A DNA stretch of 64,000 nt from an uncultured virus (IMG/VR IMGVR_UViG_3300044612_002649) (Duplodnaviria > Heunggongvirae > Uroviricota > Caudoviricetes), in the IMG/VR virus record IMGVR_UViG_3300044612_002649; one strand, 5' to 3'. Under the pieces are notes generated by a model. The model was not told the DNA's origin and ran no database searches. It saw nothing but the letters and a program-made list of their open reading frames with translations. A program made the position numbers and the translations under genes. Positions 31,821 to 47,799 of the stretch are shown here, one piece after another (position 1 is the stretch's first letter; each line of letters starts with the position of its first letter).

Positions 31821-31847
31821 AAAAAAGGTGCCGAAGCACCTTTTTTT
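31821..31847. terminator. Bidirectional intrinsic terminator
   Basis: AAAAAAGGTGC-CGAA-GCACCTTTTTT. Confidence 0.8.
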
Positions 31848-31861
31848 GTTTTTACATTGAT

Positions 31862-33274
31862 TTAAACAGCGTATCGATCGACCATAATGGTTTTTAACAT
31901 GATTCCTTCTGGTGTGAATTCACTCATATCTGCCGCCAATAATGCTTTCATGATAGCTGGACTAAAACCAGATACCAATGCTGCACCAGACTTATCAGAC
32001 TTAACCGGTACATTATCAGATGAATTAATATTCCAGAATACAATTTGTGGAGCTGTGTAACCAGCTGCCGCATATTTGCGTTCTACCATTTGCATCGCAC
32101 TATCATCAAAACTAATGCAACGATCAAATTGCATATCAGACAGGATCAATAACATTTCTGGCATTTCTGTTTGTGGAACATTGTATTTTGTTGCAACATC
32201 AAGAATTAAATCAAACGCAGCATGTAAGTTAGTGCTCATACCCCAAGTTGATTTAACCATTTGGGTTGCTTTTTCAACAACATTACCGCGAAGAGTTAAT
32301 AATTCCGGTCTTTCACTAAAAGTAATAAAAGTATCTTTAAATTTACCTTCATTTTTGTCAGCCAAGTACAAACCCAATGATACTGCAACATCCATACAGG
32401 TAATGTCCGATTTAGACATGTTACCACCAGCTCGACATGTCATCGAACCACTAACATCTACTAATGGTAGTATATTAGCATCACCAACAAAGTTTGGCAA
32501 AGCGTCCCACTGTGCAATGATATGACCTTTTTCAGTTCTATCAAACCCATAGCCACCGATACCCTTTAATACGTCATAAGGATATACCGCACCTGCATTG
32601 ACTTTAACATCAGGTTCACCCTTTACCAAAGCTTGAACGTATTCAGCAAATTTTGGAGTATGGCGATTAAAAGCTTTTTTATACCGTGTACTAGCCAATG
32701 ATGGCACATGGCTAAAGTTGATATTATCCCAATCATTCGCACACATTTGAGTTTCAACAACCTTGGTCAAAGACACTAATGTTTTGCGATATTGTTTTGG
32801 ACTCCATCCTAGAAATTTACGGAATTCAATTGCAACATTACCTTTGCGCGGTGTCCATTTAGCAGCCAAGCCATTGCCATCAGTCAATGCATTTTTTAAC
32901 ATTGTGTAAGCTTCTGTTTTCATTTCTGGTGTTTTAAACACAAAGATATCATCCCAGCGACCTAATTCAGGAACTTTAGATAACAATGCTTTTGCGGCAT
33001 CGATATCAACCGTTTCCAAATGAGATAAAATATCTCTGAACAATTTACGTTCACCTGCACCGCCTCGAACATCTCGCGACCATAATGCAACACGCATTGC
33101 TAATTCTTTATCTTCAACATACGCCGCTGTAAAAGCAGGAATTACATCTTTACCTCTACTTGCACCAATATTAAAGAACAAGTCAACAACTTTGTTTGTT
33201 GTTGACTTACGTGCTTTCATACCGTTTGAGGTATGAGATTCTTGATTTTCTACTGCTTCTACGAATGTAGTCAT
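31862..33274 (-). CDS. DUF2828-type helical plus vWA protein (Ro60/TROVE-like architecture)
   Basis: RDVRGGAGER, GRWDD, AAKWTPR, DVSGSM MIDAS, ILSDMQFD, IVFWN, VSGFSP. Confidence 0.8.
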   Translation of the reverse strand: MTTFVEAVENQESHTSNGMKARKSTTNKVVDLFFNIGASRGKDVIPAFTAAYVEDKELAMRVALWSRDVRGGAGERKLFRDILSHLETVDIDAAKALLSKVPELGRWDDIFVFKTPEMKTEAYTMLKNALTDGNGLAAKWTPRKGNVAIEFRKFLGWSPKQYRKTLVSLTKVVETQMCANDWDNINFSHVPSLASTRYKKAFNRHTPKFAEYVQALVKGEPDVKVNAGAVYPYDVLKGIGGYGFDRTEKGHIIAQWDALPNFVGDANILPLVDVSGSMTCRAGGNMSKSDITCMDVAVSLGLYLADKNEGKFKDTFITFSERPELLTLRGNVVEKATQMVKSTWGMSTNLHAAFDLILDVATKYNVPQTEMPEMLLILSDMQFDRCISFDDSAMQMVERKYAAAGYTAPQIVFWNINSSDNVPVKSDKSGAALVSGFSPAIMKALLAADMSEFTPEGIMLKTIMVDRYAV

Positions 33275-33291
33275 TGTTGTATCTCCTATGT

Positions 33292-33331
33292 CAGGTTAGT
33301 GTGTTAATTTTGTTTTGCTGTTTACTAAACT
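33292..33331 (-). promoter_or_regulatory. CAGCA-stem motif copy in the 5' UTR of the DUF2828 gene
   Basis: AGTTTAGT-AAA-CAGCA...ACTAACCTG ending a few nt before AGGAG. Confidence 0.65.
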
Positions 33332-33340
33332 ATAAGTGTG

Positions 33341-33369
33341 TATTATAGCAGATTTAATTTGTTTGTCAA
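33341..33369 (-). promoter_or_regulatory. Sigma70-type promoter of the DUF2828 gene
   Basis: TTGACA-N16-TATAAT with TG extension. Confidence 0.75.
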
Positions 33370-33652: not shown

Positions 33653-33759
33653 CAGGCTAGTGTTTGTTGAAGGTTTATACTGGCTCTTCCTTCCAGTTCG
33701 ACTAGCAGTATGTTCGCCAGTCCATCCATTATGATAAATTGGATTGCTGTATCTAGCCT
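33653..33759 (-). ncRNA. CAGCA-stem (Y-like) RNA
   Basis: AGGCTAG-ATA-CAGCA / CTAGCCTG. Confidence 0.75.
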
Positions 33760-33872: not shown

Positions 33873-34126
33873 ATTATATAGTAATTTTATTTCTTTGTCA
33901 ATAACTTTTTGATAAATAGTTATGGTAATCAAAATACTTCCAATATTTTGAAACCTAGTCTAGAGGATCTAGGCTGTCCCATAATACATTATTTATACTA
34001 GAGGAAACACTATGGCAACATTTTGTTCTTGCATCATATGCAAAAAAGAACTATCTATCAAGGGATTTCATTCCCATTTTATTCGTTTACATACTATCGA
34101 TGGTAATATAGCTACCAAACAGTATG
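33873..34126. repeat. About 254-bp duplicated cassette head, copy 1 (copy 2 at 36240-36493)
   Basis: Near-identical block: leftward sigma70 promoter, GATAAATA, leader and first ~38 codons. Confidence 0.9.
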
Positions 34127-34907: not shown

Positions 34908-34993
34908 CAGGTTAGCCATCTTTTTAGGGTTTTTCATGTCCCCGACCCGATGTCCGTTCTTAAGTGAAAAGTTTTGGATGCTGTAGCTAACCT
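34908..34993 (-). ncRNA. CAGCA-stem (Y-like) RNA
   Basis: AGGTTAGC-TA-CAGCA / GCTAACCTG. Confidence 0.75.
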
Positions 34994-35000
34994 TAAATCT

Positions 35001-35288
35001 TTATTCAATAATGCCGATAATTTCACTTTCACGTAGAACGATATATTCAACACCATCAATTTTTACTTCTGTTCCCGATCCTTTAAGATACAAAGCAAGT
35101 TCCCCTACTTTCACTTCCATTGGTCGGGTAATTCCATTATCAAGTGGTTTTCCTTCACCTATTGCGACAATTTCGCCATCAATAGTTTTTTCACTTTTAT
35201 CATCTGGTATTACTAAACCAAATGAGTTAGTTTTCACCACTTCTTTCTTTTTTATAAGAACTCGGTCTTCTAAAACTTGAAAATTCAT
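35001..35288 (-). CDS. groES: Co-chaperonin GroES
   Basis: LEDRVLI...GLVIP...G.IVAIGEG...VKVG...LRESEIIG. Confidence 0.92.
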   Translation of the reverse strand: MNFQVLEDRVLIKKKEVVKTNSFGLVIPDDKSEKTIDGEIVAIGEGKPLDNGITRPMEVKVGELALYLKGSGTEVKIDGVEYIVLRESEIIGIIE

Positions 35289-35295
35289 CGTTGTC

Positions 35296-35568
35296 CTACG
35301 CAGTTCTGTTAATCAAATGGTAGCCGAATTGGGTTTGGATTGGTGCACTTAACCCACCAACTTCTAAATCAAATGAAACATCTTCAAATGGTTGAACCAT
35401 TTGTCCACGTCCAAATAGACCTAAATCACCACCACGCATTCCACTTGGGCATTTGCTAAATTGTTTGGCTAAATCACCAAATTCAGCACCTTCATTAATC
35501 TGTTTTGCTAAATCTTGCGCTTCCTCTAGTGTATCCACTAGAATATGTCTTGCTGCTACTTGTGTCAT
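35296..35568 (-). CDS. ppiC: Parvulin peptidyl-prolyl isomerase
   Basis: ARHILV, FSKCPSG..GGDLG.F.RGQMV..FE, TQFGYHLI. Confidence 0.92.
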   Translation of the reverse strand: MTQVAARHILVDTLEEAQDLAKQINEGAEFGDLAKQFSKCPSGMRGGDLGLFGRGQMVQPFEDVSFDLEVGGLSAPIQTQFGYHLINRTA

Positions 35569-35591
35569 AAATTCCTTTTTTAAAATTAGAA

Positions 35592-35703
35592 CAGGATACG
35601 TGTTTTTAGCCTGGCGCTCTCCCAACTGAGCTACATTTCTATTGAAATGGTAGGACTTGAACCTACGACATCTAGGGTGTATTAAACTTGCTGAATGTAT
35701 CCT
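35592..35703 (-). ncRNA. CAGCA-stem RNA with circularly permuted tRNA cargo
   Basis: T arm GTAGG-TTCAAGT-CCTAC, closed acceptor CATTTC-AATA-GAAATG, D arm GCTCAGTTGGGAGAGC. Confidence 0.85.
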
Positions 35704-35713
35704 AAAAAATTAG

Positions 35714-35812
35714 CAGGGTCACTGTATTATGCTGACATACAACCATTATACTTCTAGACGGAATCGAACCGTTCCTTCAGCTTGGCTTAATATAAAATGC
35801 TGAACTGACCCT
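35714..35812 (-). ncRNA. CAGCA-stem RNA with T-arm/D-arm cargo
   Basis: AGGGTCA / TGACCCTG; ACGG-TTCGATT-CCGT. Confidence 0.75.
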
Positions 35813-35817
35813 AAATT

Positions 35818-35892
35818 TGGAAGCGGGAGTTGGATTTGAACCAACGACCTCTGGGTTATGAGCCCAGCCATCTACCACTGATATACCCCGCG
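35818..35892 (-). tRNA. tRNA-Met(CAT), initiator-like
   Basis: C1 mismatch, GGG/CCC anticodon stem, CCA. Confidence 0.9.
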
Positions 35893-36023
35893 ATAATTCT
35901 TGTTATAACTGATACTATAGTTGATGTATATTTGATCTATGATCGTTATTATTAGTATATGATATAGCATCAGTTATTTTTAGTAGTATACTTGATAATA
36001 TTATAGTTGTCAAGTATTTAAAA

Positions 36024-36076
36024 CAGGCTCATTTTTTCTTGTTTGCAATAAGATTATGATATGCTGAATTGAGCCT
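36024..36076 (-). ncRNA. CAGCA-stem RNA carrying a Cys(GCA) anticodon stem-loop
   Basis: AGGCTCA / TGAGCCTG; TCTTA-TTGCAAA-CAAGA. Confidence 0.75.
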
Positions 36077-36082
36077 AAAATT

Positions 36083-36156
36083 TGGAGCGGACTACGAGAT
36101 TCGAACTCGTTTAGCTAGCTTGGAAGGCTAGAGCACAACCCATATGCCAAGTCCGC
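36083..36156 (-). tRNA. tRNA-Gly(TCC)
   Basis: Cloverleaf, loop CTTCCAA, CCA. Confidence 0.9.
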
Positions 36157-36165
36157 AATGTTTAA

Positions 36166-36220
36166 CAGGATACGTTTTATTTCACCAATTGAAAGTTTTT
36201 GTATTTGCTGAATGTATCCT
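36166..36220 (-). ncRNA. CAGCA-stem RNA with short hairpin cargo
   Basis: AGGATAC-ATT-CAGCA / GTATCCTG; TTTCA-ATTGG-TGAAA. Confidence 0.75.
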
Positions 36221-36239
36221 AAAACTGTTTATACTATAC

Positions 36240-36493
36240 ATTATATAGTAATTTTATTTCTTTGTCAATAACTTTTTGATAAATAGTTATGGTAATCAAA
36301 ATATTGGGAGTATTTTGAAACCTAGTCTAGAGGATCTAGGCTGTCCCATAATACATTATTTATACTAGAGGAAACACTATGTCAACATTTTGTTCTTGCA
36401 TCATATGCAAAAAAGAACTTTCTATCAAGGGATTTCATTCCCATTTTATTCGTTTACATACTATCGATGGTAATATAGCTACCAAACAGTATG
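36240..36493. repeat. Duplicated cassette head, copy 2
   Basis: Near-identical to 33873-34126. Confidence 0.9.
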
Positions 36494-37212
36494 GAAAACT
36501 ATCTACATTTAAAAATAAACAAAATGCAGATTTAAAAAATAATTTTATTAGAATCCAATATGCTAATATTCCTAGTCACTGTAAAGAATGTGACTGTTGC
36601 TTACCATATGAAAAACGTTCTAATAGTTTTTGTTCAAGTAGTTGCAGTGCAACTTACAATAACAACTTGCGTTCAGTAGGTGGATATAAAATGTCAATTA
36701 ATTCTAGACAAAAAATATCTGAAAAAAATACTGGGCACTTGAAACCGATTTATACCAAAATTGCATGTTGTAAAATATGCAAAAAATGGTTTGCTGGTAC
36801 AAATAAAACCTGCTCACTAACCTGTAGAAATATGAGCTTTTCATTAACCGCCAAAAAAACAAAATTAGGCGGTAATAAAAATACCAGAGCTTATGGTTGG
36901 TATTATTCAAAATTTGCTGGTAAGGTTTGGCTAGAATCATCTTATGAATACAAAGTTGCAAAAGAATTAGATGACAATAACATTAGATGGATACGTCCAT
37001 CTTTCCTTTTTTATACCTTAAATAATATAAAAAAGAGATATTACCCAGATTTCTTTTTAGAAGACTTCAATATCTTCCTAGATCCAAAAAATGATTACCT
37101 TATTATACAAGATCTTGAAAAAATAGAATGCGTTAGAAACCAAAATAATGTAAAAGTATTAGTTTTAACTAAATTTCAATTATCTTGGAAAATAATACAT
37201 TCATTGTTGTAA
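36379..37212 (+). CDS. Putative homing endonuclease (Cys-rich N-terminus, PD-(D/E)XK C-terminus)
   Basis: ESSYE...YYPDFFL...LDPKN. Confidence 0.75.
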   Translation: MSTFCSCIICKKELSIKGFHSHFIRLHTIDGNIATKQYGKLSTFKNKQNADLKNNFIRIQYANIPSHCKECDCCLPYEKRSNSFCSSSCSATYNNNLRSVGGYKMSINSRQKISEKNTGHLKPIYTKIACCKICKKWFAGTNKTCSLTCRNMSFSLTAKKTKLGGNKNTRAYGWYYSKFAGKVWLESSYEYKVAKELDDNNIRWIRPSFLFYTLNNIKKRYYPDFFLEDFNIFLDPKNDYLIIQDLEKIECVRNQNNVKVLVLTKFQLSWKIIHSLL

Positions 37213-37298
37213 TGGAGCTGAGTGTGGGACTCGAACCCACGGTGGGTGTTAACCAACGGCTTACAAGACCGCTCTAATCGCCGCTATAGGAACTCAGC
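37213..37298 (-). tRNA. tRNA-Thr(TGT) with long variable arm
   Basis: GCGGT-CTTGTAA-GCCGT; 15-nt variable region; CCA. Confidence 0.75.
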
Positions 37299-37692
37299 AT
37301 AGTTAGTACTGTTATGTGGGACCGTTTTTAAGATCCCACATAACAGTGTTCTTTACAATTTAACCTTTGTACCACACACAGTGCAGGTGCCATTGAGTTT
37401 TTTGAAATCAAGATTAAAAACTCTCATACCGGTACCGTATGTTTTATCTTGAAACTCATGTTTACAATTACATTTCTTTACTTCTACAGCCATTATGCAC
37501 CTCTTTTAATAAGAATGTTAATACGATTTTGATATTTACGTTTATCACGTGGTCTAACAGTTTTTTCAACTAGTTCTTGTAATTTAGCTAAACTAAAATT
37601 ACCAATTCTAACCTTACCATTTTTAGTTTGATTAGGGTTAGCTTTTCTGTTTCCTTTACTAATAGTTGCCATTTGATGTCCTTATTATACTA

Positions 37693-37998
37693 TTACTTAT
37701 TATTGTTGTCAAGTGTTTTTATATTTTCTTCGATAAATTTAATTGCTTCATCGACTGGTAATTCACCCACTTCTACATGAAATACATTTCTGTCTTGTGC
37801 ATGAGCACCATGTGAATTAAATGCTACTGTTGGCAATTCTTTATCAAATTTAGATACCAATCGTTCATCATTGTATGTATCTAACACTTCTTCAACAACT
37901 TCCTTTTTCTTACTGAAAATTGCATCCCAGTTATCTGCAAACTTCTGCCTGTTAACTGGTCTAGCTGCACTTCCTTTGCCGCCATGCCATCCTGCCAT
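37693..37998 (-). CDS. Hypothetical protein
   Basis: 101-aa ORF with GGAG RBS. Confidence 0.6.
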   Translation of the reverse strand: MAGWHGGKGSAARPVNRQKFADNWDAIFSKKKEVVEEVLDTYNDERLVSKFDKELPTVAFNSHGAHAQDRNVFHVEVGELPVDEAIKFIEENIKTLDNNNK

Positions 37999-38210
37999 TG
38001 TATCTCCGTTACATTTTTGTTGCCAATATAGTTTTGGCTAATTCTTTTGTTGCGATTAAATCATTCTGACTAAATGAACTTTTAATCTTTTCTGAAAATT
38101 CAATTCTTTCTTCTATTGTCATTAATCTATAAATTATTTTTATCAATTCATAATCAAATTCAGTTGGTTCTTCTAAATTTTCAAACATAAAAGTATTCTT
38201 GTCAGTGTGT

Positions 38211-38543
38211 TTAAATTTCAGGTTGAGTTTTTATGAATCGATCAATGTTTTGAATCATCAATTGTTTCAACCTAACTTTATCATATCCTGGTTCTTCTAA
38301 ACATTCTGGAAGTGTTAACCGGAATAAAGTTTCTTTTTCTTCATCATATATGGATAATGCCCATATCTGTGTTCCACAGAATCCACTAGCAGCTAATAAT
38401 ATCATTTGCCACCCATCACCTTTAATAAAACTATGGGTACGTTGCAATTGTGGTCCAACATTTGTTTTAAGAAAATCAAAAGTATTAGCTAATCTTTTTT
38501 GATAATCTTCTCCATATGATTCGTTTCCGTGTATTACTAGCAT
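38211..38543 (-). CDS. Hypothetical protein
   Basis: ATG at 38543 after GAGG; the ORF-track start lies inside tRNA-Ala. Confidence 0.55.
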   Translation of the reverse strand: MLVIHGNESYGEDYQKRLANTFDFLKTNVGPQLQRTHSFIKGDGWQMILLAASGFCGTQIWALSIYDEEKETLFRLTLPECLEEPGYDKVRLKQLMIQNIDRFIKTQPEI

Positions 38544-38563
38544 TTGTGCCTCTGTGTTAAAAT

Positions 38564-38637
38564 TGGTGGAGACTAGGAGAGTTGAACTCCTGATAACGCC
38601 GTGCAAGGGCGTGGTTATACCATTTAACTAAATCCCC
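38564..38637 (-). tRNA. tRNA-Ala(TGC)
   Basis: G3.U70 pair, loop CTTGCAC, CCA. Confidence 0.9.
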
Positions 38638-38642
38638 GATAT

Positions 38643-38720
38643 TGGCTCCCATCGCTGGTAACGATCCAGCCTCATTCTCGGTTAACAGCCGAGCGCATTC
38701 ACCATGATTGCTAGATGGGA
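38643..38720 (-). tRNA. tRNA-Asn(GTT)
   Basis: Loop CTGTTAA, GCCA end, atypical T loop. Confidence 0.85.
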
Positions 38721-39418
38721 TTTATTCTTTTTTTACCGTTTTGTGGTATAAATTCAGGAACTAATTTAGAGAATGCTATTACTAAATTTGGTTTAGAATA
38801 TTTATACCCAGTTATTCTTACAAACTCATCAAATCCAACATTTTTGTATATACTATACCATTCTATATGTTGGTTAATTCGTTGATTTTGTTTTTCTTCT
38901 TTTTCTGTTTTTATTTTTGTAAGAAGATTTTCATTTTTAACCAGTCTGGTAGAATATTCATCGAAATCTATAATTCGTTTTTTAATCCACCCATCTGGAA
39001 TTATATCAGTTTTTTTAACTTTTTTGGTTTCACGTAAAGCAATATTACTTATCCATATTGATCCATATTGTGAATTTTTTTTACCGGATTGTAATTCACT
39101 TTGGATTTTACTAAACTGATATCTTAATAGTTCATATTTCCTTGATGATACGTATCTACATTGATTTCCAGATTTACAATATAACATCATAATAAATGCT
39201 TTTATCATTTTATTACCATTTGCAGTTCCTGGTTTATATATTTTCATCAATAAGTAATGACATATATAATGTTCTCTAGCAGATAATTTTACTAAATTCA
39301 TAGGATTATCTGTTCCACCCAATGATTTAGGTATTATATGATGTGTCTCTGTGTATCCATTATATTTTTCATTTTGTCTTTTATCAATAATTTGATTGTA
39401 AATTTTTCTGTAATTCAT
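38711..39418 (-). CDS. HNH homing endonuclease
   Basis: HHIIPKSLGG...NLVKLSAREHYICH; stop codon lies inside tRNA-Asn. Confidence 0.9.
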   Translation of the reverse strand: MNYRKIYNQIIDKRQNEKYNGYTETHHIIPKSLGGTDNPMNLVKLSAREHYICHYLLMKIYKPGTANGNKMIKAFIMMLYCKSGNQCRYVSSRKYELLRYQFSKIQSELQSGKKNSQYGSIWISNIALRETKKVKKTDIIPDGWIKKRIIDFDEYSTRLVKNENLLTKIKTEKEEKQNQRINQHIEWYSIYKNVGFDEFVRITGYKYSKPNLVIAFSKLVPEFIPQNGKKRINPI

Positions 39419-39691
39419 ACTGTTAATCCATTTAACAGTATTTATGCATTTAACAGTTTTATTTAAAATAGTTTTTGATACTGTTGAAAAAAATCAATCA
39501 GTACATCTAACTTTTCCATTGCTTCTTGCTCTGTCATGTTAAATATCCTTTTTGATATATCGACAATTATTCTTTTTATAGTTTAGTATCAAGAGTGAGT
39601 TGTACCAAGATACCGATCATTCAAAATATTGTTATACAATATCTAAATCTCGCACCGCATGTTATTGTAAACTATTTTTTATTTATATTTT

Positions 39692-39753
39692 ATCAGGATG
39701 CGTTTTAACATTTTCAATTTATCAGGATGCGTTTTAACATTTTCAATTTATCA
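39692..39753. repeat. 29-bp tandem duplication of a CAGCA-stem RNA 3' end
   Basis: ATCAGGATGCGTTTTAACATTTTCAATTT occurs twice. Confidence 0.85.
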
Positions 39754-39785
39754 GATTGACGTTTAAAGTTTGCTGAATGCATCCT
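39723..39785 (-). ncRNA. CAGCA-stem RNA carrying an Ile(GAT) anticodon stem-loop
   Basis: AGGATGC / GCATCCTG; TCAAT-CTGATAA-ATTGA. Confidence 0.8.
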
Positions 39786-39794
39786 AAAACTTTA

Positions 39795-39883
39795 CAGGAT
39801 CTTTTATTTAGTGGACTTGAACCACTTAACTTACGATTTAGAGTCGTTTGTATTATCCAAAGGAAAGTTGCTGTAAAGATCCT
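39795..39883 (-). ncRNA. CAGCA-stem RNA carrying a CUA anticodon arm plus T arm
   Basis: ACGA-CTCTAAA-TCGT then AGTGG-TTCAAGT-CCACT. Confidence 0.8.
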
Positions 39884-39889
39884 AAATTT

Positions 39890-39978
39890 TGGCGGAAGAT
39901 GTGAGATTCGAACTCACGCAACCCTTTCGAGGTTGACGGTTTAGCAAACCGCTCCATTAACCACTCTGGCAACCTTCC
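39890..39978 (-). tRNA. tRNA-Ser(GCT)
   Basis: Long variable arm, loop TTGCTAA, GCCA. Confidence 0.92.
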
Positions 39979-39986
39979 TATATTCA

Positions 39987-40072
39987 TGGTAGCCGAGGGC
40001 GGAGTTGAACCGCCACGCCCGAAAGCAATGGATTTTAAGTCCATCATGTACTACCAATTTCATCACTCGGCC
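39987..40072 (-). tRNA. tRNA-Leu(TAA)
   Basis: Loop CTTAAAA, long variable arm, ACCA. Confidence 0.9.
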
Positions 40073-40085
40073 ATTAATTTTGTAT

Positions 40086-40164
40086 CAGGTTAGTTGCTTA
40101 CCTAAAGCTAATCGCATATAGCGACCGGAATCGAACCGACTGTTTATTTTGCTGTAGCTAACCT
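40086..40164 (-). ncRNA. CAGCA-stem RNA with minimal permuted tRNA cargo
   Basis: T arm CGG-TTCGATT-CCG, TCGC-TATAT-GCGA, D-like GCTTTAGGTAAGC. Confidence 0.8.
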
Positions 40165-40173
40165 AACATTTAT

Positions 40174-40308
40174 CAGAATGCATTTTATTTTTTCACCATC
40201 GCGTTTACCAGTTTCGCCACTTAAAACCAGGTTTTAAGGTAGGACTTGAACCTACAAATCAAAGATAACGGTTTCCTATTAATAAAATATAGTTGCTGTA
40301 AGCATTCT
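40174..40308 (-). ncRNA. CAGCA-stem RNA with permuted Leu-type tRNA cargo
   Basis: AGAATGC / GCATTCTG; T arm, CTTAAAAC-CTG-GTTTTAAG, D arm GCGAAACTGGTAAACGC. Confidence 0.85.
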
Positions 40309-40314
40309 AAATCT

Positions 40315-40389
40315 TGGAGGCAGAGGAGGGAATCGAACCCCCGACCTTCGGGTTATGAGCCCGACAATCTACCGCTGATATACTCTGCG
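40315..40389 (-). tRNA. tRNA-Met(CAT), initiator-like, second copy
   Basis: TCGGG-CTCATAA-CCCGA; CCA. Confidence 0.88.
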
Positions 40390-40445
40390 TTAATTCTTTG
40401 TGTATATTATACACGATTTTTTAATCTTGTCAATATTAATTTTAA

Positions 40446-40567
40446 CAGGATCCTTTTTTACGTCGCTCTACCAGACTGAGCTAATCCCCGGTAGTTTTTC
40501 GGGGATGTCGGATTCGAACCGACGACCAACGGCTCCCAATGCAATTATTGTATGCTGAACGGATCCT
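40446..40567 (-). ncRNA. CAGCA-stem RNA with permuted Pro-like tRNA cargo
   Basis: GTCGG-TTCGAAT-CCGAC, ATCCCCG-loop-CGGGGAT, GCTCAGTCTGGTAGAGC. Confidence 0.88.
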
Positions 40568-40765
40568 AAAACTTTAAAATTGTTAAAGAGCTTATTAACT
40601 AATATGTGTACATTATACACTAATTAAATTATATGTCAAGATATTTTTGAATTTAAATCATTAATAATTTGTTTTCCAACTGATTCATACGGCGTGGCTC
40701 CAGTAATCATATCTTGATTATCGTATTTATCCATATATTATACACAAACTAATTTATTAGTCAAT

Positions 40766-42259
40766 TCATTTTTCTAGTACATCATTACCAATAAACATCG
40801 CATTTAAGCTTGTTGTTTTAAACAATTCTATAGCATTTTCTGGAAAGCCAGCTAGTGGTTTGCCAGCGATATTCAAACTGGTGTTTAATAATACTGGGCA
40901 TCCTGTTATTTTATAAAACTCTTCCATCAATGTTCTAAATGTATTATTTGTTCTATCAACAATCTGTATTCTACAAGTTCTATCAACATGTGTAATACCT
41001 GGGAGTTCATCACGCCTGACATTAGCTGTATATAGCATAAATGCATCGTTAACATTAATATCAAAATAATCTTTTGCATACTCTTCCAAAACAGAACCAC
41101 CAAAAGGACGGTATCTTTCTCGTTTTTTGATTTTATTAACTAGATCCTTACTGCATTTCATTCTCGGATCACATAGTATTGATCTATTTCCCAATGCTCG
41201 TGGTCCAATTTCACCATTGCCCTGATACCACCCAATAACATTACCATCTGCCAATAATTTAGCAGCTTTTTTTATAGTATCAATAGTTGGCGTAGATGCT
41301 GGACAAATATCATTTTGAATGTATGGAAAATTGTGTAATGTGAATGGTGGTAATTGATTTTTTATTCGTAACCATTCTATTCCTCCAAGGCTTGTCCCTT
41401 CATCAGATGAATGTGGTGGGATTATAACATTGTTAAAATTCTTTTTTATTTCTGTATTCCAAATAACATTTTGTGCAACTCCACCAGAATAAGTTATAAT
41501 ATCTTCGGACGATGCATATTTTTTAAATAAATCAACTATGATTTCTCCAATTCTTACATGCACAGTATGGATCCAATCAAGTAATGTATTAGCTGATATG
41601 ACTTTATCATTTATAAATGTGTGCCAAGTTTCCGGTGAATAAATGGTATTTATAGAATTTATGTCGAAGTTACGCAAGAACTCAAGAAATTCAGTATGTA
41701 TTCTCCCATAAGATTGAATGCCCATCACTTTTCCAGCAATATCATTGTAGTGTCCAGCGTTAATATTAAGATATTTCCCAGCATCTCTCATCCCCCAGCC
41801 TATTGATCCATTAGTAATATTGCCAAAGGCTATTAATGAGTTATTTTTATACACAGACCATGGCCGTGAATCTCCTAATCCATCTATTACTATATGAATA
41901 GTAGGGGTGACTGAAGATAGCATCCAAGAACTCAATGCATGTGAATAATGATGCCCAATAAACCATATATTTTTATCGTATGGAAGAGAATCGATCAGTA
42001 GTTTAATTCCAGAACCACACACACCACCAAACTTATAATTGTTATGTTTAGATAAGTCAATATCAAGTACTATTTCATCAATATCAGATAATTTAACATC
42101 CCATAAATGTTTTATATCATCAACCCATGCTAATGGATCAGTGTGATGATAACGTTTTATTTGTGTTGATCTTTCAAGTTTATGATAATGTAATTTTTTA
42201 CCATCATAGTAACATATGTTATGATCATGGTTTAATGCTGATATTGATAATAGTTTCAT
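40766..42259 (-). CDS. Carbamoyltransferase (NodU/CmcH family)
   Basis: HHYSHA, DG.GD, GKVMG, GGVAQN, EIGPRALGNRSIL, LLNTSLN. Confidence 0.9.
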   Translation of the reverse strand: MKLLSISALNHDHNICYYDGKKLHYHKLERSTQIKRYHHTDPLAWVDDIKHLWDVKLSDIDEIVLDIDLSKHNNYKFGGVCGSGIKLLIDSLPYDKNIWFIGHHYSHALSSWMLSSVTPTIHIVIDGLGDSRPWSVYKNNSLIAFGNITNGSIGWGMRDAGKYLNINAGHYNDIAGKVMGIQSYGRIHTEFLEFLRNFDINSINTIYSPETWHTFINDKVISANTLLDWIHTVHVRIGEIIVDLFKKYASSEDIITYSGGVAQNVIWNTEIKKNFNNVIIPPHSSDEGTSLGGIEWLRIKNQLPPFTLHNFPYIQNDICPASTPTIDTIKKAAKLLADGNVIGWYQGNGEIGPRALGNRSILCDPRMKCSKDLVNKIKKRERYRPFGGSVLEEYAKDYFDINVNDAFMLYTANVRRDELPGITHVDRTCRIQIVDRTNNTFRTLMEEFYKITGCPVLLNTSLNIAGKPLAGFPENAIELFKTTSLNAMFIGNDVLEK

Positions 42260-42710
42260 TAGTCACGTTCGTATATTTTGCTTCCCATCCATCTTTTTCA
42301 GTAAAAAATCTTACTGCCTTGATATTTGGATATTCACCAGCATCGAACCAATGTTTTACATTAGCAGGAACACTGATTAAATCATTTGGTCCCACATCAA
42401 GTTCATAAACAGTATCAGATACATTAAAAAAGAACTTTGCAGTACCATGAGTAAATAAACGCATTTCATAATCAGTATGATAATGCTCTTTTTTAAACTG
42501 CTCTCTTAATGATTGATAGTTTTTAGTTGAACTATCTAATACAATAGTATCATTGTAAGGAACATCATAATCATATTTTATTTGTTCTATAATGTTCTCA
42601 TCTGTTGGAATTCGAACATATAATACATGAATATTATCTAATTGTCTAGCAATTTCTTCATATTCCACGTAAGTAGTAAAATCTTCTGTTTTATCATAAA
42701 TTTTTAACAT
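42225..42710 (-). CDS. Acireductone dioxygenase-like cupin
   Basis: EHYHTDYEMR...LISVPANVKHWFDAG...AVRFF...GW. Confidence 0.8.
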   Translation of the reverse strand: MLKIYDKTEDFTTYVEYEEIARQLDNIHVLYVRIPTDENIIEQIKYDYDVPYNDTIVLDSSTKNYQSLREQFKKEHYHTDYEMRLFTHGTAKFFFNVSDTVYELDVGPNDLISVPANVKHWFDAGEYPNIKAVRFFTEKDGWEAKYTNVTNETIINISIKP

Positions 42711-42748
42711 ATTACTACTTATCGTTTGCACTATAATAGTGCTAAATT

Positions 42749-42822
42749 TGGCAGCGCGGGAGGGATTTGAACCCCCAAGAATGGTTTTGGAGACCATCAT
42801 GATACAATTTCATCACCAGGCT
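42749..42822 (-). tRNA. tRNA-Trp(CCA)
   Basis: Loop CTCCAAA, GCCA end. Confidence 0.85.
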
Positions 42823-42959
42823 AAAAAAATAAATTCCAGGATAGTTTAATCTCTATGAAACCTCTATCTTCCTATTGAAAGTTATCTGGAACGGGCTAAC
42901 TCACTCTTGTTTATTTTAATAGGTTAAGAGCTTAACCGCCACAAAGGGCTCCTATTGTT

Positions 42960-43049
42960 TGGCGGAAGCGGTGAGATTCGAACTCACGGAACCTTGCGGT
43001 TCGCCAGTTTTCAAGACTGGTGCAATAGGCCATGCTCTGCCACACTTCC
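42960..43049 (-). tRNA. tRNA-Ser(TGA)
   Basis: Loop CTTGAAA, long variable arm. Confidence 0.92.
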
Positions 43050-43086
43050 ATAATTTGGAGGCCGGTCTATGACCTGCCTCAATAAT

Positions 43087-43164
43087 TGGTACCCTCTCTC
43101 AGATTCGAACTGAGACTATACGGTATCTAAAACCGTCTCCTCTACCAGATTGGGATAAGAGGGC
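43087..43164 (-). tRNA. tRNA-Leu(TAG) with short variable loop
   Basis: ACGGT-TTTAGAT-ACCGT; 5-nt variable loop; ACCA. Confidence 0.8.
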
Positions 43165-43251
43165 AAAATTTATTTATTCTAGTTTGCATAAACTATAGAA
43201 TGCTAGATGTCGGTTGTTTTTAATACAAATCATGGATCTATATTAAGTGCT

Positions 43252-43857
43252 TTACTTTATAATTCTTTCAAAATGCACATCTGCCTCATTACCGGTATGA
43301 CATTCGAGCTCTATAAAGCATCTAAATCCTCGCTCTTCTAACCATTTAACCACATCTTCAGTTCGGTTGTCTGTATTTTTATACAAATCTGCTTTATATG
43401 CGGTTTCACACTTTCCACGTTTAATATTGGTTATTTTATCACCTAAACTACGCAAAACATTAAAATCATTACCTTGTGCATCAATCCACAAATATTCTAC
43501 TTCACCTATACCATACATTTCCATAAATGTATCTAGCCGAAGAGTCATCACTCGTGCAATATCAGTGATTTGTAGATTCCTACCAGGCCAGTGCTCATAA
43601 CGATCTTCTTTGAATTCAAATAATGAAGAACAACCCCAATCTTCGACGCCTGCAATATTAAATTGTTTAAATCCATTTGTTAAATCAACAGCAGCTGGAA
43701 TTAGATTCCAATTTGAATTGAATTTAAATTTATTTTGTAAATTTACAACTAATGCTGGCGTTGGCTCGAATGAATACACTATATTCCCAGGATCTTGAAG
43801 AAAAGTAGCGGTATCATGCCCATCTTTTGCACCTATTTCTATAATTGTTTTATTCAT
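43252..43857 (-). CDS. FkbM-family methyltransferase
   Basis: IEIGAKDG, SFEP, WIDAQGND. Confidence 0.85.
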   Translation of the reverse strand: MNKTIIEIGAKDGHDTATFLQDPGNIVYSFEPTPALVVNLQNKFKFNSNWNLIPAAVDLTNGFKQFNIAGVEDWGCSSLFEFKEDRYEHWPGRNLQITDIARVMTLRLDTFMEMYGIGEVEYLWIDAQGNDFNVLRSLGDKITNIKRGKCETAYKADLYKNTDNRTEDVVKWLEERGFRCFIELECHTGNEADVHFERIIK

Positions 43858-43875
43858 AATTCCCTTTTTTATGTT

Positions 43876-43954
43876 TGGCACCCTTGGAAGGACTTGAACC
43901 TCCGACAAACCCACGTTCGTAGCGTGGTGCTCTAATCCACTGAGCTACAAGGGC
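43876..43954 (-). tRNA. tRNA-Arg(ACG)
   Basis: Loop CTACGAA, GCCA. Confidence 0.9.
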
Positions 43955-43964
43955 TTTATTTCAT

Positions 43965-44753
43965 CAGGATCTGCTTTTTACGGTTTCCTATCCACTAGAA
44001 GAACTCTTAAAGTTTGTGTTTGCAATTATCAAAGTGATATCGTTTCATATTTCCAATTCCACCTATTATATCACAATGAGGACAGCATACTTTAACTTGT
44101 GGTCCGCTTTTTATATCTTTGTTCCATGGAGTTTGCAATCCTGTTTTACCTTTATTCCATGGGGTTTGTCCAGTTTTTCCTTTCTTAATAGCAGACATTT
44201 TAGCTCTTTCTGCTGCTGTCCATATTTTTTTAGGTTTATTAGATCTTTGTTCTTTCAATATTGGCATTACTCTACCCAATCTCCAATTGTCAGGAATTGC
44301 AGTGTCAATATCAATAGATCTATTTTCATGTCCGTTTGTTATCCAGCGTCTTCCATACATCGAGTTGTTGTGACCAGTTCTAGTTTTGGCAGCCAGCTGC
44401 ATCTTTCGACGTAACCAACCATATAACTTATTATTTCTATTTTGATTATCACTGGTCACAGTCATCATAGTAGCAGCATATACTAGTGAGTAATTATCAT
44501 ATATTTTAACCAACAATAGATGTGCTACATAATGTTCTTCTGGCGTTAATTTAACCACATTGTCCGGGTCATCTTTCCCGCCCATACATCGTGGAATAAT
44601 ATGATGTTTCTCAAAGTATTCATTATCGAGAAACGTTCTATTTTTTCCACGATGTATTAATTTTTCATATATAATTTTATAGTTCATATAGTATTTATAC
44701 TTATGAACCTACGTTCCCGGCCTGGAATGCTAATTGTATGCGGTATAGATCCT
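43965..44753 (-). ncRNA. CAGCA-stem RNA (CCGCA variant) interrupted by an HNH gene
   Basis: 5' arm AGGATCT at 44753 and 3' arm AGATCCTG at 43965 flank the ORF. Confidence 0.7.
44007..44687 (-). CDS. HNH homing endonuclease
   Basis: HHIIPRCMGG...NVVKLTPEEHYVAH; PWNKG repeats. Confidence 0.9.
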   Translation of the reverse strand: MNYKIIYEKLIHRGKNRTFLDNEYFEKHHIIPRCMGGKDDPDNVVKLTPEEHYVAHLLLVKIYDNYSLVYAATMMTVTSDNQNRNNKLYGWLRRKMQLAAKTRTGHNNSMYGRRWITNGHENRSIDIDTAIPDNWRLGRVMPILKEQRSNKPKKIWTAAERAKMSAIKKGKTGQTPWNKGKTGLQTPWNKDIKSGPQVKVCCPHCDIIGGIGNMKRYHFDNCKHKL

Positions 44754-44762
44754 AAAATTGTT

Positions 44763-45038
44763 TTACTTCAATTGTGACTTTCTAAACATTCGGTCCAATT
44801 TAGTATTGATATCTTTGCAGAGTTGTTCAGATCGTTCTGCTGCTTTTACTGCATTATCAACTTTTGAACTAACAGTTGATAGAGCGCGATTAGTATCTAC
44901 TAATCCAGTACTCAATGTTTTTTGATTTGTAGTAATTACATCGATTTCACCTTGTAATTTGGCGATATCTGTGTTTGTTGCACATCCAGTAACCAATGCT
45001 AAAGCACCAACCATGAATAACATATTTAATTTTCTCAT
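44763..45038 (-). CDS. Lpp/OprI-like alanine-zipper lipoprotein
   Basis: Lipobox VTGC; coiled coil; KLDRMFRKS end. Confidence 0.75.
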   Translation of the reverse strand: MRKLNMLFMVGALALVTGCATNTDIAKLQGEIDVITTNQKTLSTGLVDTNRALSTVSSKVDNAVKAAERSEQLCKDINTKLDRMFRKSQLK

Positions 45039-45063
45039 TTTACACCTTTGTTAATTAAAATCA

Positions 45064-45154
45064 CAGGATGATATATTGTTTCGGAGCCGGGAGATTCGAA
45101 CTCCCAGAAGATACCCGCTTATCGGCTTCGGCATTTTTGTGCTGTAATCACCCT
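45064..45154 (-). ncRNA. CAGCA-stem RNA with T-arm cargo
   Basis: AGGGTGAT / ATCATCCTG; GGGAG-TTCGAAT-CTCCC. Confidence 0.75.
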
Positions 45155-45164
45155 TATTAATCAG

Positions 45165-45578
45165 TTAAGATAATCGTTCTTTTTCTGATTCCATAAAGCG
45201 TGTTCGTTTTACAAGTGATAAAACGAATTCTGACTCAGCAATTGATTTGGAATCAAGATCAACTCGCAAGTTCAAGAAGTAAGAAACATCATTATGAACC
45301 AGTTTAATGGAACTATAGTCTGTTACTTCCGCAGTGAATGATTTTGGAATTTGAATTACAACATCCATCAATCGTTCGAAATGTTTATCCGCATCAACAA
45401 AGTATTGTTCAACAAATGTTTTTAAGTGATGTGGTGTATTTCTTAATGTTTCGGATTTATAGTTTCTATAATTTCCGACTGAAACTGTTACCGCTTCAAT
45501 AAGGTCAGTACCAGTGTATCTAGGATACTCAGGGATTAAGTTGTAAGGTTTTTTTACTTCTTGTTCAATTACTAGCAT
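45165..45578 (-). CDS. Hypothetical protein
   Basis: ORF with GGA RBS. Confidence 0.55.
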   Translation of the reverse strand: MLVIEQEVKKPYNLIPEYPRYTGTDLIEAVTVSVGNYRNYKSETLRNTPHHLKTFVEQYFVDADKHFERLMDVVIQIPKSFTAEVTDYSSIKLVHNDVSYFLNLRVDLDSKSIAESEFVLSLVKRTRFMESEKERLS

Positions 45579-45606
45579 TATATCATTCCGATAATAGTTA
45601 AAAAAT

Positions 45607-45680
45607 TGGCAGGGATACACGGATTCGAACCATGGATGACTGGATCAAAACCAGTTGTGTTACCACTACACCATATCCCA
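45607..45680 (-). tRNA. tRNA-Gln(TTG)
   Basis: U1-start, loop TTTTGAT, GCCA. Confidence 0.9.
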
Positions 45681-45690
45681 ATTGTTATTA

Positions 45691-45808
45691 CAGGTTAGCA
45701 TTTTAAGTTTTCCCAATTAAACTACATTAGTGACCAACCCTAACGCTGGGATTCGAACCCAGAACTTTCTTTTACAATAAGATTTAATAAAATTGCTGAA
45801 ACTAACCT
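45691..45808 (-). ncRNA. CAGCA-stem RNA with permuted tRNA cargo
   Basis: CTGGG-TTCGAAT-CCCAG, CGTTAG-loop-CTAATG, GTTTAATTGGGAAAAC. Confidence 0.85.
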
Positions 45809-45848
45809 ATTGGTCTTATTCGCTGGTGACTAGCCTCGAATATTCTGT

Positions 45849-45911
45849 CAGGATACACATTTTACGGGTTTGATTAGCTGTCAAATGTATGATTGTTGCT
45901 GTAGGTATCCT
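45849..45911 (-). ncRNA. CAGCA-stem RNA with a 7-nt-loop hairpin (GCT triplet)
   Basis: AGGATAC / GTATCCTG; TTTGA-CAGCTAA-TCAAA. Confidence 0.75.
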
Positions 45912-45967
45912 AGAACTGTTTATGCTATGTATTATACATCATTTTTATTCATTGTCAATATTTATTT

Positions 45968-46042
45968 TGGAGCGGGTAATGAGATTCGAACTCACGACAT
46001 TCAGGTTGGCAACTTGAAGCTCTACCACTGAGCTATACCCGC
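45968..46042 (-). tRNA. tRNA-Gly(GCC)
   Basis: Loop TTGCCAA, TCCA. Confidence 0.9.
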
Positions 46043-46049
46043 TCAAAAT

Positions 46050-46124
46050 TGGCGGACTGTACGGAATTTGAATCCGTGATACCACCGTGACAGGGTGGCG
46101 TGATAACCGCTTCACTAACAGTCC
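46050..46124 (-). tRNA. tRNA-Asp(GTC)
   Basis: Loop CTGTCAC, GCCA. Confidence 0.9.
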
Positions 46125-46246
46125 AAAATTGTTGAGTATCTAACATCATACAATACTCGGGAGACCTCTACCAGCCTCGTTTTTATTACTGAGCCTATCC
46201 GAAGATAGTGTTTAAAATGATATTAAGGTTGCCCAGCTCTAGAGTT

Positions 46247-46323
<77 letters not shown>

Positions 46324-46629
46324 ATAATTCTATTTAAACGGAGTTTTTTCACAGGCTAATGCATGATGATATGCTATTTTCATAGACTCATATTTTTCCG
46401 TTGCTTCGCTTAATTGTTGCTGTAATTTTAGCATATCTTGTTCTACATAATCAAGATTTCTTTTAACGATATCCGATGTTCTTTTACCTGCCATATATAG
46501 ACCTTTTAGAAATAAAAGAATCACCCCAGTCGGTAGCATGAAATACCGCATATTTTTTAGATTTTTCACCATGTTTTTCATGGAATTTTTTAGTAGCTTC
46601 TTCGTTTACTATTGCGGTTCTTTTCATAC

Positions 46630-47004
46630 TTACCTCGCAAATCCACGATTTCTCAGTAATTGTGATAATTCATATTCGAATGTACCAAAATCAGACCTTT
46701 CACGCCCATAAATTGTATCAGGAACAATAATACCAATACTAGTCAATGCATTGTCAATCGATGGTTCATTAAAAATCGCCCATGGATATTCGTTTGTTTC
46801 ATTGTTTAACAAATTGACAATGTTTGCCATCTGTTCACTAGTACCACCATTCAATACAATTGCAGTTTTGTGGTTTTCAGCCCAATCTACCAATAGTTCG
46901 TTAGTTGTACCATATTTGTTGTTGATCTCTTGCAGTGCATGCAAAGATTGTATACCGTGTTGTATAGAACTCAGGTACATGTTTGTTAAAAAATAAGCTC
47001 TCAT
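46630..47004 (-). CDS. Phage Pth2-fold (peptidyl-tRNA hydrolase-like) protein
   Basis: LSSIQHGIQSLHA...W...HKTAIVLNGG...F.EP...LTSIG. Confidence 0.6.
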   Translation of the reverse strand: MRAYFLTNMYLSSIQHGIQSLHALQEINNKYGTTNELLVDWAENHKTAIVLNGGTSEQMANIVNLLNNETNEYPWAIFNEPSIDNALTSIGIIVPDTIYGRERSDFGTFEYELSQLLRNRGFAR

Positions 47005-47079
47005 AGTTTTCCTATATGTTACTGAGTATTTATTATTTGAGGTTATCAATCATCTGGGTAGTTACCAAAACTAATTAGG

Positions 47080-47153
47080 GGTGACCGATAGGACTTGAAC
47101 CCATAAAATTCTGAATCACAATCAGGGTCGTCTACCAATTCCGACACGGCCAC
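47080..47153 (-). tRNA. tRNA-His(GTG), no encoded CCA or G-1
   Basis: Loop TTGTGAT, discriminator C. Confidence 0.8.
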
Positions 47154-47171
47154 ACCTAATTAGTCTAATTT

Positions 47172-47654
47172 TATAATAAACCACACTACGGAAGGATTCG
47201 AACCTTCGGTTGCCGTCGCACTCAACACGCCAGTGTACCTCGATACGAATCGAACGTATCTTACCACCATTTATAGTGTAGTTTATTATATAATCATATA
47301 GTAAAGTGCATTAAACGAGGGAACACGAATGCTACACATCCTCCTGTCTCCGGCCCTCAAGCTTAACATCCTTCTGGCCAGTGATGTTAAGGTGACTGAT
47401 TAATACACTTTAATATAAAATTATATAGAAACACATGCTGAAGGACGAACGGCGTATTTCCATCGAAGAACTATATCTTTCTCATCGCCGTATAGCTTCC
47501 CGCACGATATAGTCTGAGTTGCGCTTCAGGATGTGTTTTTATATAATCATATAATAAAGCATACTACACGGAATTGAACCGTCTTCATTCAAGCCCGGAG
47601 CTCAAACTGTGATCCACACAACGCTGATCAGACGCTAATATGCTTTATTATATG
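47172..47654 (-). ncRNA. Tandem array of four long-terminal-stem RNA units (family 2)
   Basis: Units 47172-47290, 47297-47416, 47421-47546 and 47548-47654, each closed by an approx. 16-20-bp AT-rich imperfect inverted repeat. Confidence 0.65.
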
Positions 47655-47657
47655 ATT

Positions 47658-47733: not shown

Positions 47734-47799
47734 AAATTTTCTTGCCTTCTTTTTCTGTTTTTGTCTTTCGTTTCATAATTATTTCCTATGTTGTTATAG

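Follow-up and report, generated by a model that had tools for sequence, protein, structure and literature searches.

The mRNA of a DUF2828/DUF7788 gene in an uncultured virus is predicted to begin with a copy of the likely partner RNA of the encoded Ro-like protein, set against the ribosome-binding site, so that the protein is probably able to limit its own synthesis through this stripped-down RNA copy. The window, that is, the whole stretch of 64,000 nucleotides analysed here, contains a family of RNAs with the motif CAGCA(A), and the leader of the gene is a weak, short-cargo member of this family, at least 18 other copies of which are located in the upstream tRNA array. The leader motif is real and goes beyond a chance match. 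The family RNAs among the phage tRNAs are likely partners of the Ro-like protein, and a comparison of related loci supports a functional link of the leader, the RNA family, and the gene. From these observations we infer that the protein binds the RNAs, binds the leader, and acts negatively. Judged by sequence comparison, the regulatory mechanism would be a plausible and specific proposal.

On the minus strand, the leader reads TAGTTTAGT-AAA-CAGCA-15 nt-ACTAACCTG, followed by ACAT, AGGAG, and the ATG at 33274 (Table 1). The original prediction, made from the letters alone, had placed this layout between the promoter and the AGGAG of the DUF2828 gene, and the layout is present there with one mismatch, ending 4 nt before the Shine-Dalgarno. 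The two arms form eight of nine standard pairs, and the single T x C mismatch is located at 33329/33295. The promoter P2 consists of a TTGACA box (33369-33364) and a TGcTATAAT box (33350-33342) with a spacer of 16 nt, and its predicted start is 1-5 nt 5' of the leader element.

The occurrence of the motif has been measured with a strict pattern consisting of AG, a 5-7 nt stem, 2-4 nt, CAGCA, 8-150 nt, the complementary arm, and CTG. The window contains 16 perfect copies on the minus strand vs 0 on the plus strand. With up to one mismatch the counts are 19 and 2, and the leader is one of the three minus-strand matches gained in this way, the other two (54380-54304 and 7980-7933) looking like chance. 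Random 64-kb strands (200, Markov-1) contain on average 0.075 perfect matches and 0.68 matches with up to one mismatch, so that ~6e-4 matches are expected by chance in a leader of 60 nt. For the simpler TAGK-N7-CAGCA, the window has 14 occurrences, always on the minus strand, with 0.46 expected. When any 7-bp stem near CAGCA was allowed, nearly every CAGCA on both strands matched (62 vs 59), and this loose scan was replaced by the AG...CTG pattern.

The seed of a covariance model, R1, comprises 34 copies from relatives, taken from leaders and short array elements, and excludes the window sequence. R1 recovers ten array copies of the window (E 1.6e-6 to 0.015) and ranks the leader 11th after them, with 17.9 bits and an E of 0.27 in the whole window; when the 161-nt leader region is searched, the leader has an E of 6.7e-4. 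The leader shows two operator-like traits, namely its resemblance to the RNA family (by R1 score and by the strict pattern with one mismatch) and a 3' arm that abuts the ribosome-binding site, 4 nt from AGGAG.

Table 1. Positions of the leader, the Ro-like gene, and the RNA family in the window.
Feature	Position	Strand	Basis
Palindromic G+C hairpin flanked by T/A runs, terminator-like, between the DUF2828 stop and the PTH2 gene	31821..31846		Sequence scan, listed on the plus strand; symmetric
DUF2828/DUF7788 gene, 470 aa, predicted Ro60-like TROVE ring and vWA domain with DxSxS MIDAS	31862..33274	minus	Pfam, AlphaFold2, Foldseek
Shine-Dalgarno AGGAG, 4 nt past the 3' arm, 8 nt before ATG	33283..33287	minus	Sequence
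Leader element, 41 nt	33292..33332	minus	Sequence, strict pattern, R1 17.9 bits, folding
Leader 5' arm TAGTTTAGT	33332-33324	minus	Sequence
Leader spacer AAA	33323-33321	minus	Sequence
Leader CAGCA	33320-33316	minus	Sequence
A-rich linker, 15 nt	33315-33301	minus	Sequence
Leader 3' arm ACTAACCTG	33300-33292	minus	Sequence
Promoter P2, sigma-70-type, TG-extended TATAAT	33342..33369	minus	Promoter scan, 12/12
Large family member, 217 nt, CTGCA replacing CAGCA, TAGGATGG-TTT-CTGCA ... CATCCTG, just upstream of P2	33427..33643	minus	Sequence, folding
Array element TAGGCTAG-ATA-CAGCAA ... CTAGCCTG	33653..33759	minus	Strict pattern, folding
Array element, 9-bp stem GGAATAGAT/ATCTATTCC, variant stem end, directly behind P1	33768..33863	minus	Sequence, folding
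Promoter P1, 12/12, geometry to its element as P2 to the leader	33873..33901	minus	Promoter scan
Remaining 15 copies among tRNA genes	34908..48934	minus	Strict pattern, R1, folding
First five of the 15	48934-48881, 47861-47800, 45911-45849, 45808-45691, 45154-45064	minus	
Next five of the 15	40567-40446, 40308-40174, 40164-40086, 39883-39795, 39785-39723	minus	
Last five of the 15	36220-36166, 36076-36024, 35812-35714, 35703-35592, 34993-34908	minus	
ORFs behind array elements: 90-aa parvulin-like, 91-aa lipoprotein-like, 21-codon	35296-35568, 44763-45038, 47711-47776	minus	

The members of the family share a common plan: (U/A)AG, a stem of 5-7 nt, 2-4 nt, CAGCA (usually CAGCAA), a cargo of 30-190 nt, the complementary arm, and CUG. 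Besides the leader, 18 copies are located from 33427 to 48934, including two variants spotted by eye, and all are on the strand of the 24 interleaved tRNA genes (34812 to 50859). The stem sequences vary between the copies yet remain complementary. Six of the copies are short, with a cargo of 30-40 nt. A T-loop-like GTTCRANTC is found in 8 of the 19 elements, the leader copy not being among them. Two cargos resemble the Rfam YrlA family (RF02553), at 40427-40551 (50.5 bits, E 6e-9) and 35589-35689 (41.8 bits, E 2e-6), both below the 69-bit cut-off, and the resemblance runs through the T-arm and D-arm of a tRNA-like module. The GNCGAA(N)G motif of YrlA has not been found in the window family, in which CAGCA(A) is the invariant motif. 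Promoter-plus-element units recur in the array, with TATAAT ~19 nt before the AGG of the elements at 48934, 47861, 45911, and 36220; these repeated units recall the mobile promoter/stem-loop cassettes of T4-type phages. Three array elements precede unrelated ORFs, 12-15 nt from their Shine-Dalgarno, which could be a small regulon or mere packing.

An IMG/VR protein search returned 222 relatives, from which 80 loci were kept; two of these (L007 and L074) begin inside the gene. All 78 loci with a leader on the contig have the motif in that leader. Looking for the motif in the 5' UTRs of DUF2828 homologues had been proposed together with the prediction, and the outcome is positive: in addition to the 78 of 78 close loci, the motif is present in 4 of 10 distant named phages, with one further CAACA variant. 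The leaders of 77 relatives, whose proteins are 64-100% identical, comprise 54 distinct sequences; the 78th, L075, was added later. The strict pattern is passed without mismatch by 54 of the 77 leaders, and the remaining 23 deviate by a mismatch, by a stem of 6 bp, or by CAG at the 3' end. From the end of the 3' arm to the ATG the distance is 7-28 nt, mostly 12-15 nt, and in most relatives the Shine-Dalgarno starts 0-4 nt past the arm.

The stem of the leader covaries. Lineage-specific versions include AGAATGT/ACATTCT, AGAATGC/GCATTCT, AGGTTA/TAACCT, AGTTTAG/CTAAACT, and TGAATGC/GCATTCA. In an alignment of 29 leader sequences, 98.1% of the cells are paired and four of the eight pairs have changed on both sides; none of 500 shuffles reaches the covariation score, and slid controls pair 25-49%. 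Across 64 family matches, in an alignment that is fitted to R1, 96.1% of the cells are paired and six of the eight pairs have changed on both sides (in 114 cells), with 29-38% paired for a slid partner. Among the 54 leader rows, the 3' arms of L005, L010, L020, L058, and L062 were assigned by eye. The 3' arms of the shortest leaders were misplaced by MAFFT; L021, L022, and L058 (A2) were left out of the R1 seed and L020 is misaligned in A3.

Most relatives lack a promoter dedicated to the gene; their leader copy is located ~9 nt past the 3' arm of another element, and therefore the gene is fed by the array transcript. This arrangement admits a different explanation, in which the leader copy is simply the last (or 5'-terminal) array RNA, is cut off, and acts in trans, its closeness to the Shine-Dalgarno being tight packing. 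The leader copies of the promoter-less relatives look like any short array RNA and score as high as any family member, and compaction could place the Shine-Dalgarno there, as elements also abut tRNAs, one another, and other ORFs. The spacing is, however, different: the gap from the leader element to the Shine-Dalgarno is 0-4 nt, while other window elements are 9-15 nt away from the next tRNA, element, or Shine-Dalgarno.

The lineages with their own promoter also bear on this question. A promoter scoring at least 11/12 is present in eleven distinct leaders, and the end of its -10 box is 18-23 nt before CAGCA, which places the predicted start at the foot of the 5' arm. None of these eleven leaders has a promoter between the element and the Shine-Dalgarno. 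Cargos are shortest (11-20 nt) in the promoter-bearing leaders, which are without the small hairpin of the longer ones. On a FastTree phylogeny of 54 proteins, the combination of own promoter and short cargo requires four changes, at least three of them forced by well-supported branches; L058/L062, which have this combination, are nested within an array-fed clade. L075 also has a short leader with its own promoter, with a mismatch at the third stem position as in the window. A passive array RNA does not account for a promoter always placed before the element and never after it, for an element reduced to a stem and CAGCAA, or for a window version that would be too unstable as a free-standing RNA, and we consider this explanation unlikely.

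The closing helix of the window leader is weak (-0.8 kcal/mol, pair probabilities of 0.13-0.28) and is missing from the minimum-energy fold, whereas a typical short array copy reaches -10 kcal/mol and array copies folded alone have the closing stem in their minimum-energy structure. When compared with shuffles, the 82-nt window leader has no extra stability (fold z 0.06) and neither do ten other leaders (z -1.5 to +1.0). Folding energy was dropped as evidence of leader structure, since no leader is distinct from shuffles, and with so weak a helix any leader structure in the window would need to be induced by a protein. The same result bears on a role of the element in cis that is positive or neutral, in which a 5' end that is folded or capped by the protein would shield the mRNA from 5'-end-dependent decay, or would help the new protein to meet RNA during its synthesis. 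It is well established that 5'-terminal hairpins stabilise mRNAs, and the predicted starts of the 11 promoter-bearing leaders, 1-5 nt before the 5' arm, would suit such a role. The window helix by itself is, however, too weak to protect an mRNA, and a positive or neutral role appears to us rather improbable.

RNA libraries contain this region. In two metatranscriptome runs from one freshwater sample, contigs matching 31856-33856 and 31580-33883 bridge the upstream elements, the leader, and the gene, and a metatranscriptome contig of a separate study is located at 33437-33633, inside the large element 33427-33643; the runs were read as contigs, which show presence and bridging in the libraries and not transcript ends, strand, or level.

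A DNA-level search among named phages returned no close relative of the window. The comparison also covers ten distant named phages with a DUF2828 gene. Their leaders have the motif in four cases. In Aeromonas APT65 the leader reads AGAATGT-TTA-CAGCAA...ACATTCTG, TT, AAGGA; in Campylobacter CPX 22 nt separate the 3' arm from the ATG; in Sinorhizobium phiM12 an own promoter is followed by AAAACGA-CAA-CAGCAA, 12 nt, TCGTTTTG, and AAAAGGAA; and in Synechococcus BUCT-ZZ01 a copy with CAGCAT was identified by eye. Serratia BF has the same layout with CAACA for CAGCA, and Vibrio R10Z is ambiguous. In the remaining four (FelixO1, Listeria LP-048, Mycobacterium Wilder, and Bacillus Thrax3), no element is found beside the Shine-Dalgarno, and family RNAs are located up to 2 kb before or after the gene. 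In Wilder (L089 4472-4728) the family RNAs are downstream of the gene, the foot of the stem is UGG...CCAG and not UAG...CUG, a compensated change, and one cargo is annotated as tRNA-Asn. Listeria LP-048 (L088 1469-2020) has a match to ROOL RNA of 90 bits (cut-off 99.1) between tRNAs, ~1 kb upstream of DUF2828.

The RNA family goes with the gene. On eleven named loci (the ten DUF2828 phages and CcrColossus), R1 gives 19 matches, all on the strand of the gene. When whole genomes are searched, R1 matches six of six DUF2828 phages and none of the four tRNA-rich phages without DUF2828 (T4, T5, Bxz1, and CcrColossus). In five of the six genomes, all matches with E < 0.01 are within ~2 kb of the gene; in Thrax3 the whole-genome search gives a weak match alone, far from the gene, and the near-gene match (E 0.076) comes from the locus search. 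Bxz1 and CcrColossus encode canonical TROVE proteins with GNCGAA-type Y RNAs (PMC4201824, Table S2). The original prediction regarded the leader as the best sequence-level link between the protein and the RNA family, a rank that belongs instead to this whole-genome co-occurrence, which is stronger. The co-occurrence also makes it very unlikely that the RNA family has a different partner, be it a phage or a host protein (for example a nuclease for processing), and that the leader copy serves this other factor. The elements do flank tRNAs, whose processing needs nucleases, but the family is missing from the four tRNA-rich phages that lack DUF2828, and in six phages with the gene it is on the gene's strand and no more than ~2 kb away.

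Within the subclade of the window, L003 and L008 are identical to it from the promoter to CAGCAAA and in both arms. The linker differs in length, with 15 nt in the window and 14 and 11 nt in these two. Leader identity to the window is 91/98 and 89/102 for L003 and L008, vs 84% and 81% for the coding DNA; the leader of L005 (71/104) is less conserved than its gene. It is highly improbable that the window's copy is a decaying relic left after the gene gained its own promoter: the stem mismatch, the cargo cut to 15 nt, the helix of -0.8 kcal/mol, and the further divergence of L005 would fit decay, but the arms and CAGCAAA are unchanged in L003 and L008 despite 16-19% divergence of the coding DNA, and the minimal form recurs in the separate lineages L058/L062, L075, and phiM12, with the L075 mismatch at the same stem position.

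The DUF2828 protein resembles Ro60 in its predicted fold. Pfam assigns solely DUF7788 (1e-48) and DUF2828 (2e-20) to the 470-aa product at E <= 0.01, and the TROVE domain has not been found at this threshold. Similarly, phmmer gives no match among PDB sequences at E <= 10, and the alignment with the CcrColossus TROVE protein is restricted to the MIDAS stretch. An AlphaFold2 model from 132 diverse homologues has a pLDDT of 94 and a pTM of 0.92; in it a ring of HEAT-like repeats precedes a MIDAS-bearing vWA domain, as in Ro60/TROVE proteins. Against the PDB, Foldseek ranks 13 Ro60/TROVE entries first (E 6e-8 to 5e-6, TM 0.40-0.62), including Xenopus Ro60, human Ro60, Deinococcus Rsr, and the Ro60 of Thermus phage phiLo, and vWA/MIDAS domains come next. 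The DxSxS residues D273, S275, and S277 are invariant in the 132 sequences. The frame of a Ro-like protein with Y-like RNAs, in which the prediction had been cast, is supported by these 13 fold matches and by the two sub-cut-off YrlA cargos, and it is therefore justified by fold and not by membership in a sequence family.

In a tblastn search the protein was found in 711 of 50,697 phage records, with 27-49% identity among the matches listed, and a protein atlas search returned phage DUF2828 clusters alone. Homologues longer than 823 aa gave 11 matches, six of them named (four fungal and two plant), and Dictyostelium is not among these six. In the available text of a tardigrade preprint, DUF2828 homologues are called mimivirus-like. 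Fusion to other domains is seen in the protein P0271 (905 aa), which combines DUF2828/DUF7788 with PF13563. This domain we take to be of the 2'-5' RNA ligase type, and it would then be another hint at RNA repair.

The surroundings of the Ro-like gene are a tRNA or RNA-repair neighbourhood. Downstream of it are genes for a PTH2 peptidyl-tRNA hydrolase (31361-31807, minus strand) and a YqeY-like protein (30740-31219, minus strand), and relatives elsewhere adjoin genes for RNA ligase, RtcB, and tRNA nucleotidyltransferase. An ORF that runs in the opposite direction (28299-29009, plus strand) has weak GIY-YIG (SegE-like) and NUMOD3 matches and may be a homing endonuclease. The minus strand of the window has further RNA genes: a match to Polynucleobacter-1 RNA that exceeds the cut-off (64.6 bits, 53191-53346), a tRNA with anticodon CUA, of the amber-reading type (54796-54870), and a tmRNA gene (58819-59233).

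Feedback on the synthesis of the Ro-like protein would proceed in four steps, of which the first two are based on sequence and folding and the last two are inferred. P2 would begin the mRNA almost exactly at the 5' arm of the element. The free leader would be nearly unstructured, leaving the Shine-Dalgarno open, and translation would be the default. New protein would first be absorbed by the many array RNAs, which are predicted to be far more stably folded. Surplus protein could then close on the leader, clamping its weak helix together with CAGCA at a distance of 4 nt from the Shine-Dalgarno, within the region occupied by the 30S subunit, and either block initiation or hand the mRNA to decay. 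The net effect would be a protein output matched to the supply of partner RNA. The footprint of the 30S subunit reaches over the leader near the Shine-Dalgarno, and thrS and the ribosomal proteins are precedents for control at this place.

We counted in favour of feedback the motif in all 78 leaders, the covarying stem, the tight spacing to the Shine-Dalgarno, the promoter geometry, the layout kept in distant cultured phages, the RNA family that goes with the gene, the Ro60 fold, and the conservation of the leader in the subclade. Counted against it were the marginal helix of the window, the four distant phages with no leader copy, the elements before unrelated ORFs, and the divergence of the L005 leader. 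On this evidence, feedback repression of translation by a leader mimic of the protein's RNA ligand is the best reading, one that we hold in even balance between belief and doubt.

Ro60-Y RNA particles have been studied from bacteria to human autoimmunity, and their regulation is poorly understood. For the Ro-like DUF2828 family there is now a candidate RNA partner, whose signature is simple and can be searched for, and a testable feedback loop in which a weak copy of this candidate RNA is set against the ribosome-binding site of the gene. Phage biologists obtain a handle on a gene that has been linked to countering bacterial defence in a Felix O1-type phage (10.1101/2024.10.10.617714), and for RNA biologists the Dictyostelium Class I RNAs acquire an unexpected look-alike. 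The literature on DUF2828, phage Ro60/YrlA, and Dictyostelium Class I RNAs, as far as its available text goes, describes no CAGCAA family with DUF2828 and no leader copy. A wider reading, which is tentative and on balance doubtful, would be that DUF2828/DUF7788 and the (A/U)AG-stem/CAGCAA/stem-CUGU RNAs form a second, undescribed class of Ro/Y-type ribonucleoprotein, spread over hundreds of phages whose hosts are Gram-negative, Gram-positive, actinobacterial, and cyanobacterial, and self-limiting through the leader mimic, and that the eukaryotic counterpart of this class is the Dictyostelium Class I RNAs, whose missing core partner would be a DUF2828-type protein.

The closest known system is Ro60/Rsr with YrlA, of which phage examples have been described (Chen et al. 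2014, PMC4201824; Thermus phage phiLo, PMC12135203). The fold and the RNA logic are common to both systems, while the sequence family, the motif, and the copy number differ. In both, a ring of HEAT repeats is joined to a vWA/MIDAS domain (predicted for the window protein), the RNAs pair their two ends in a closing stem and have a conserved 5'-side motif and a variable, sometimes tRNA-like module, and the RNA genes adjoin the protein gene on the same strand. Ro60 proteins bind Y RNA by its terminal stem, and for the DUF2828 family the observation that bears on such binding is the co-occurrence of RNA and gene. On the other hand, the window protein has neither the Pfam TROVE domain nor a sequence match to a solved Ro60, and the motif of the Y RNAs is GNCGAA/CGAA (PMC4201824) and that of the window family is CAGCA(A). 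The window also has 19 copies spread through a tRNA array, and one of them is located in the protein's own leader, for which no parallel is reported in the available text of the Ro60 literature examined. The canonical TROVE phage CcrColossus has neither CAGCAA elements nor R1 matches.

The short window copies also resemble the Dictyostelium Class I RNAs (RF01414). Both are ~55-60 nt long, start with (A/U)AG, end with CUG(U), and are closed by a short terminal stem; a conserved motif (Rfam consensus CUUACAGCAA) comes right after the 5' arm, and the variable part is rich in A/U. The architecture of the Class I RNAs, as in the short copies, is (A/U)AG, stem, [C/U]UACAGCAA, A/U-rich part, stem, and CUGU, and the leader copy of the window, with 41 nt, is shorter than the Class I-like ~60 nt. 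Matches to RF01414 are below its 41.5-bit cut-off, with 29.9 and 29.2 bits in the window, 28.4 bits in the Aeromonas phage, and 27.1 bits in the L076 leader. Class I RNAs, which are eukaryotic, have a DUSE promoter of their own and the RRM protein Rnp1A as the known binder, and have been reported as unique to Dictyostelia (Kjellin et al. 2021, PMC7919456). The window differs in that its content is phage-type throughout and its elements have sigma-70-type promoters, not DUSE. Avesson et al. (2011) reportedly list four proteins that bind Class I RNA.

The nearest published statement concerns Bas63 gp130, a protein found to be Ro60-like by structure comparison, whose gene immediately precedes a stretch of tRNAs in a phage of the Felix O1 type and which was reported to have a role against the Ppl defence system; the PhageMaP authors suspected Y RNAs among the neighbouring tRNA genes, and the available text of the preprint identifies no RNA motif or leader element (10.1101/2024.10.10.617714). 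Felix O1 itself has a DUF2828 gene and three to four family RNAs, without a leader copy.

Autogenous operators that mimic an RNA ligand are known from the E. coli thrS leader, the ribosomal-protein operons, T4 RegA and gp32, and archaeal L7Ae. In these operators, a weaker copy of the ligand is located at or just 5' of the ribosome-binding site, and the target RNA and the mRNA compete for the protein. None of these operator proteins is, to our knowledge, Ro-like. The DUF2828 leader of the window has the same arrangement, a ligand-like copy that abuts the ribosome-binding site, with the CAGCA(A) family as the putative ligand.
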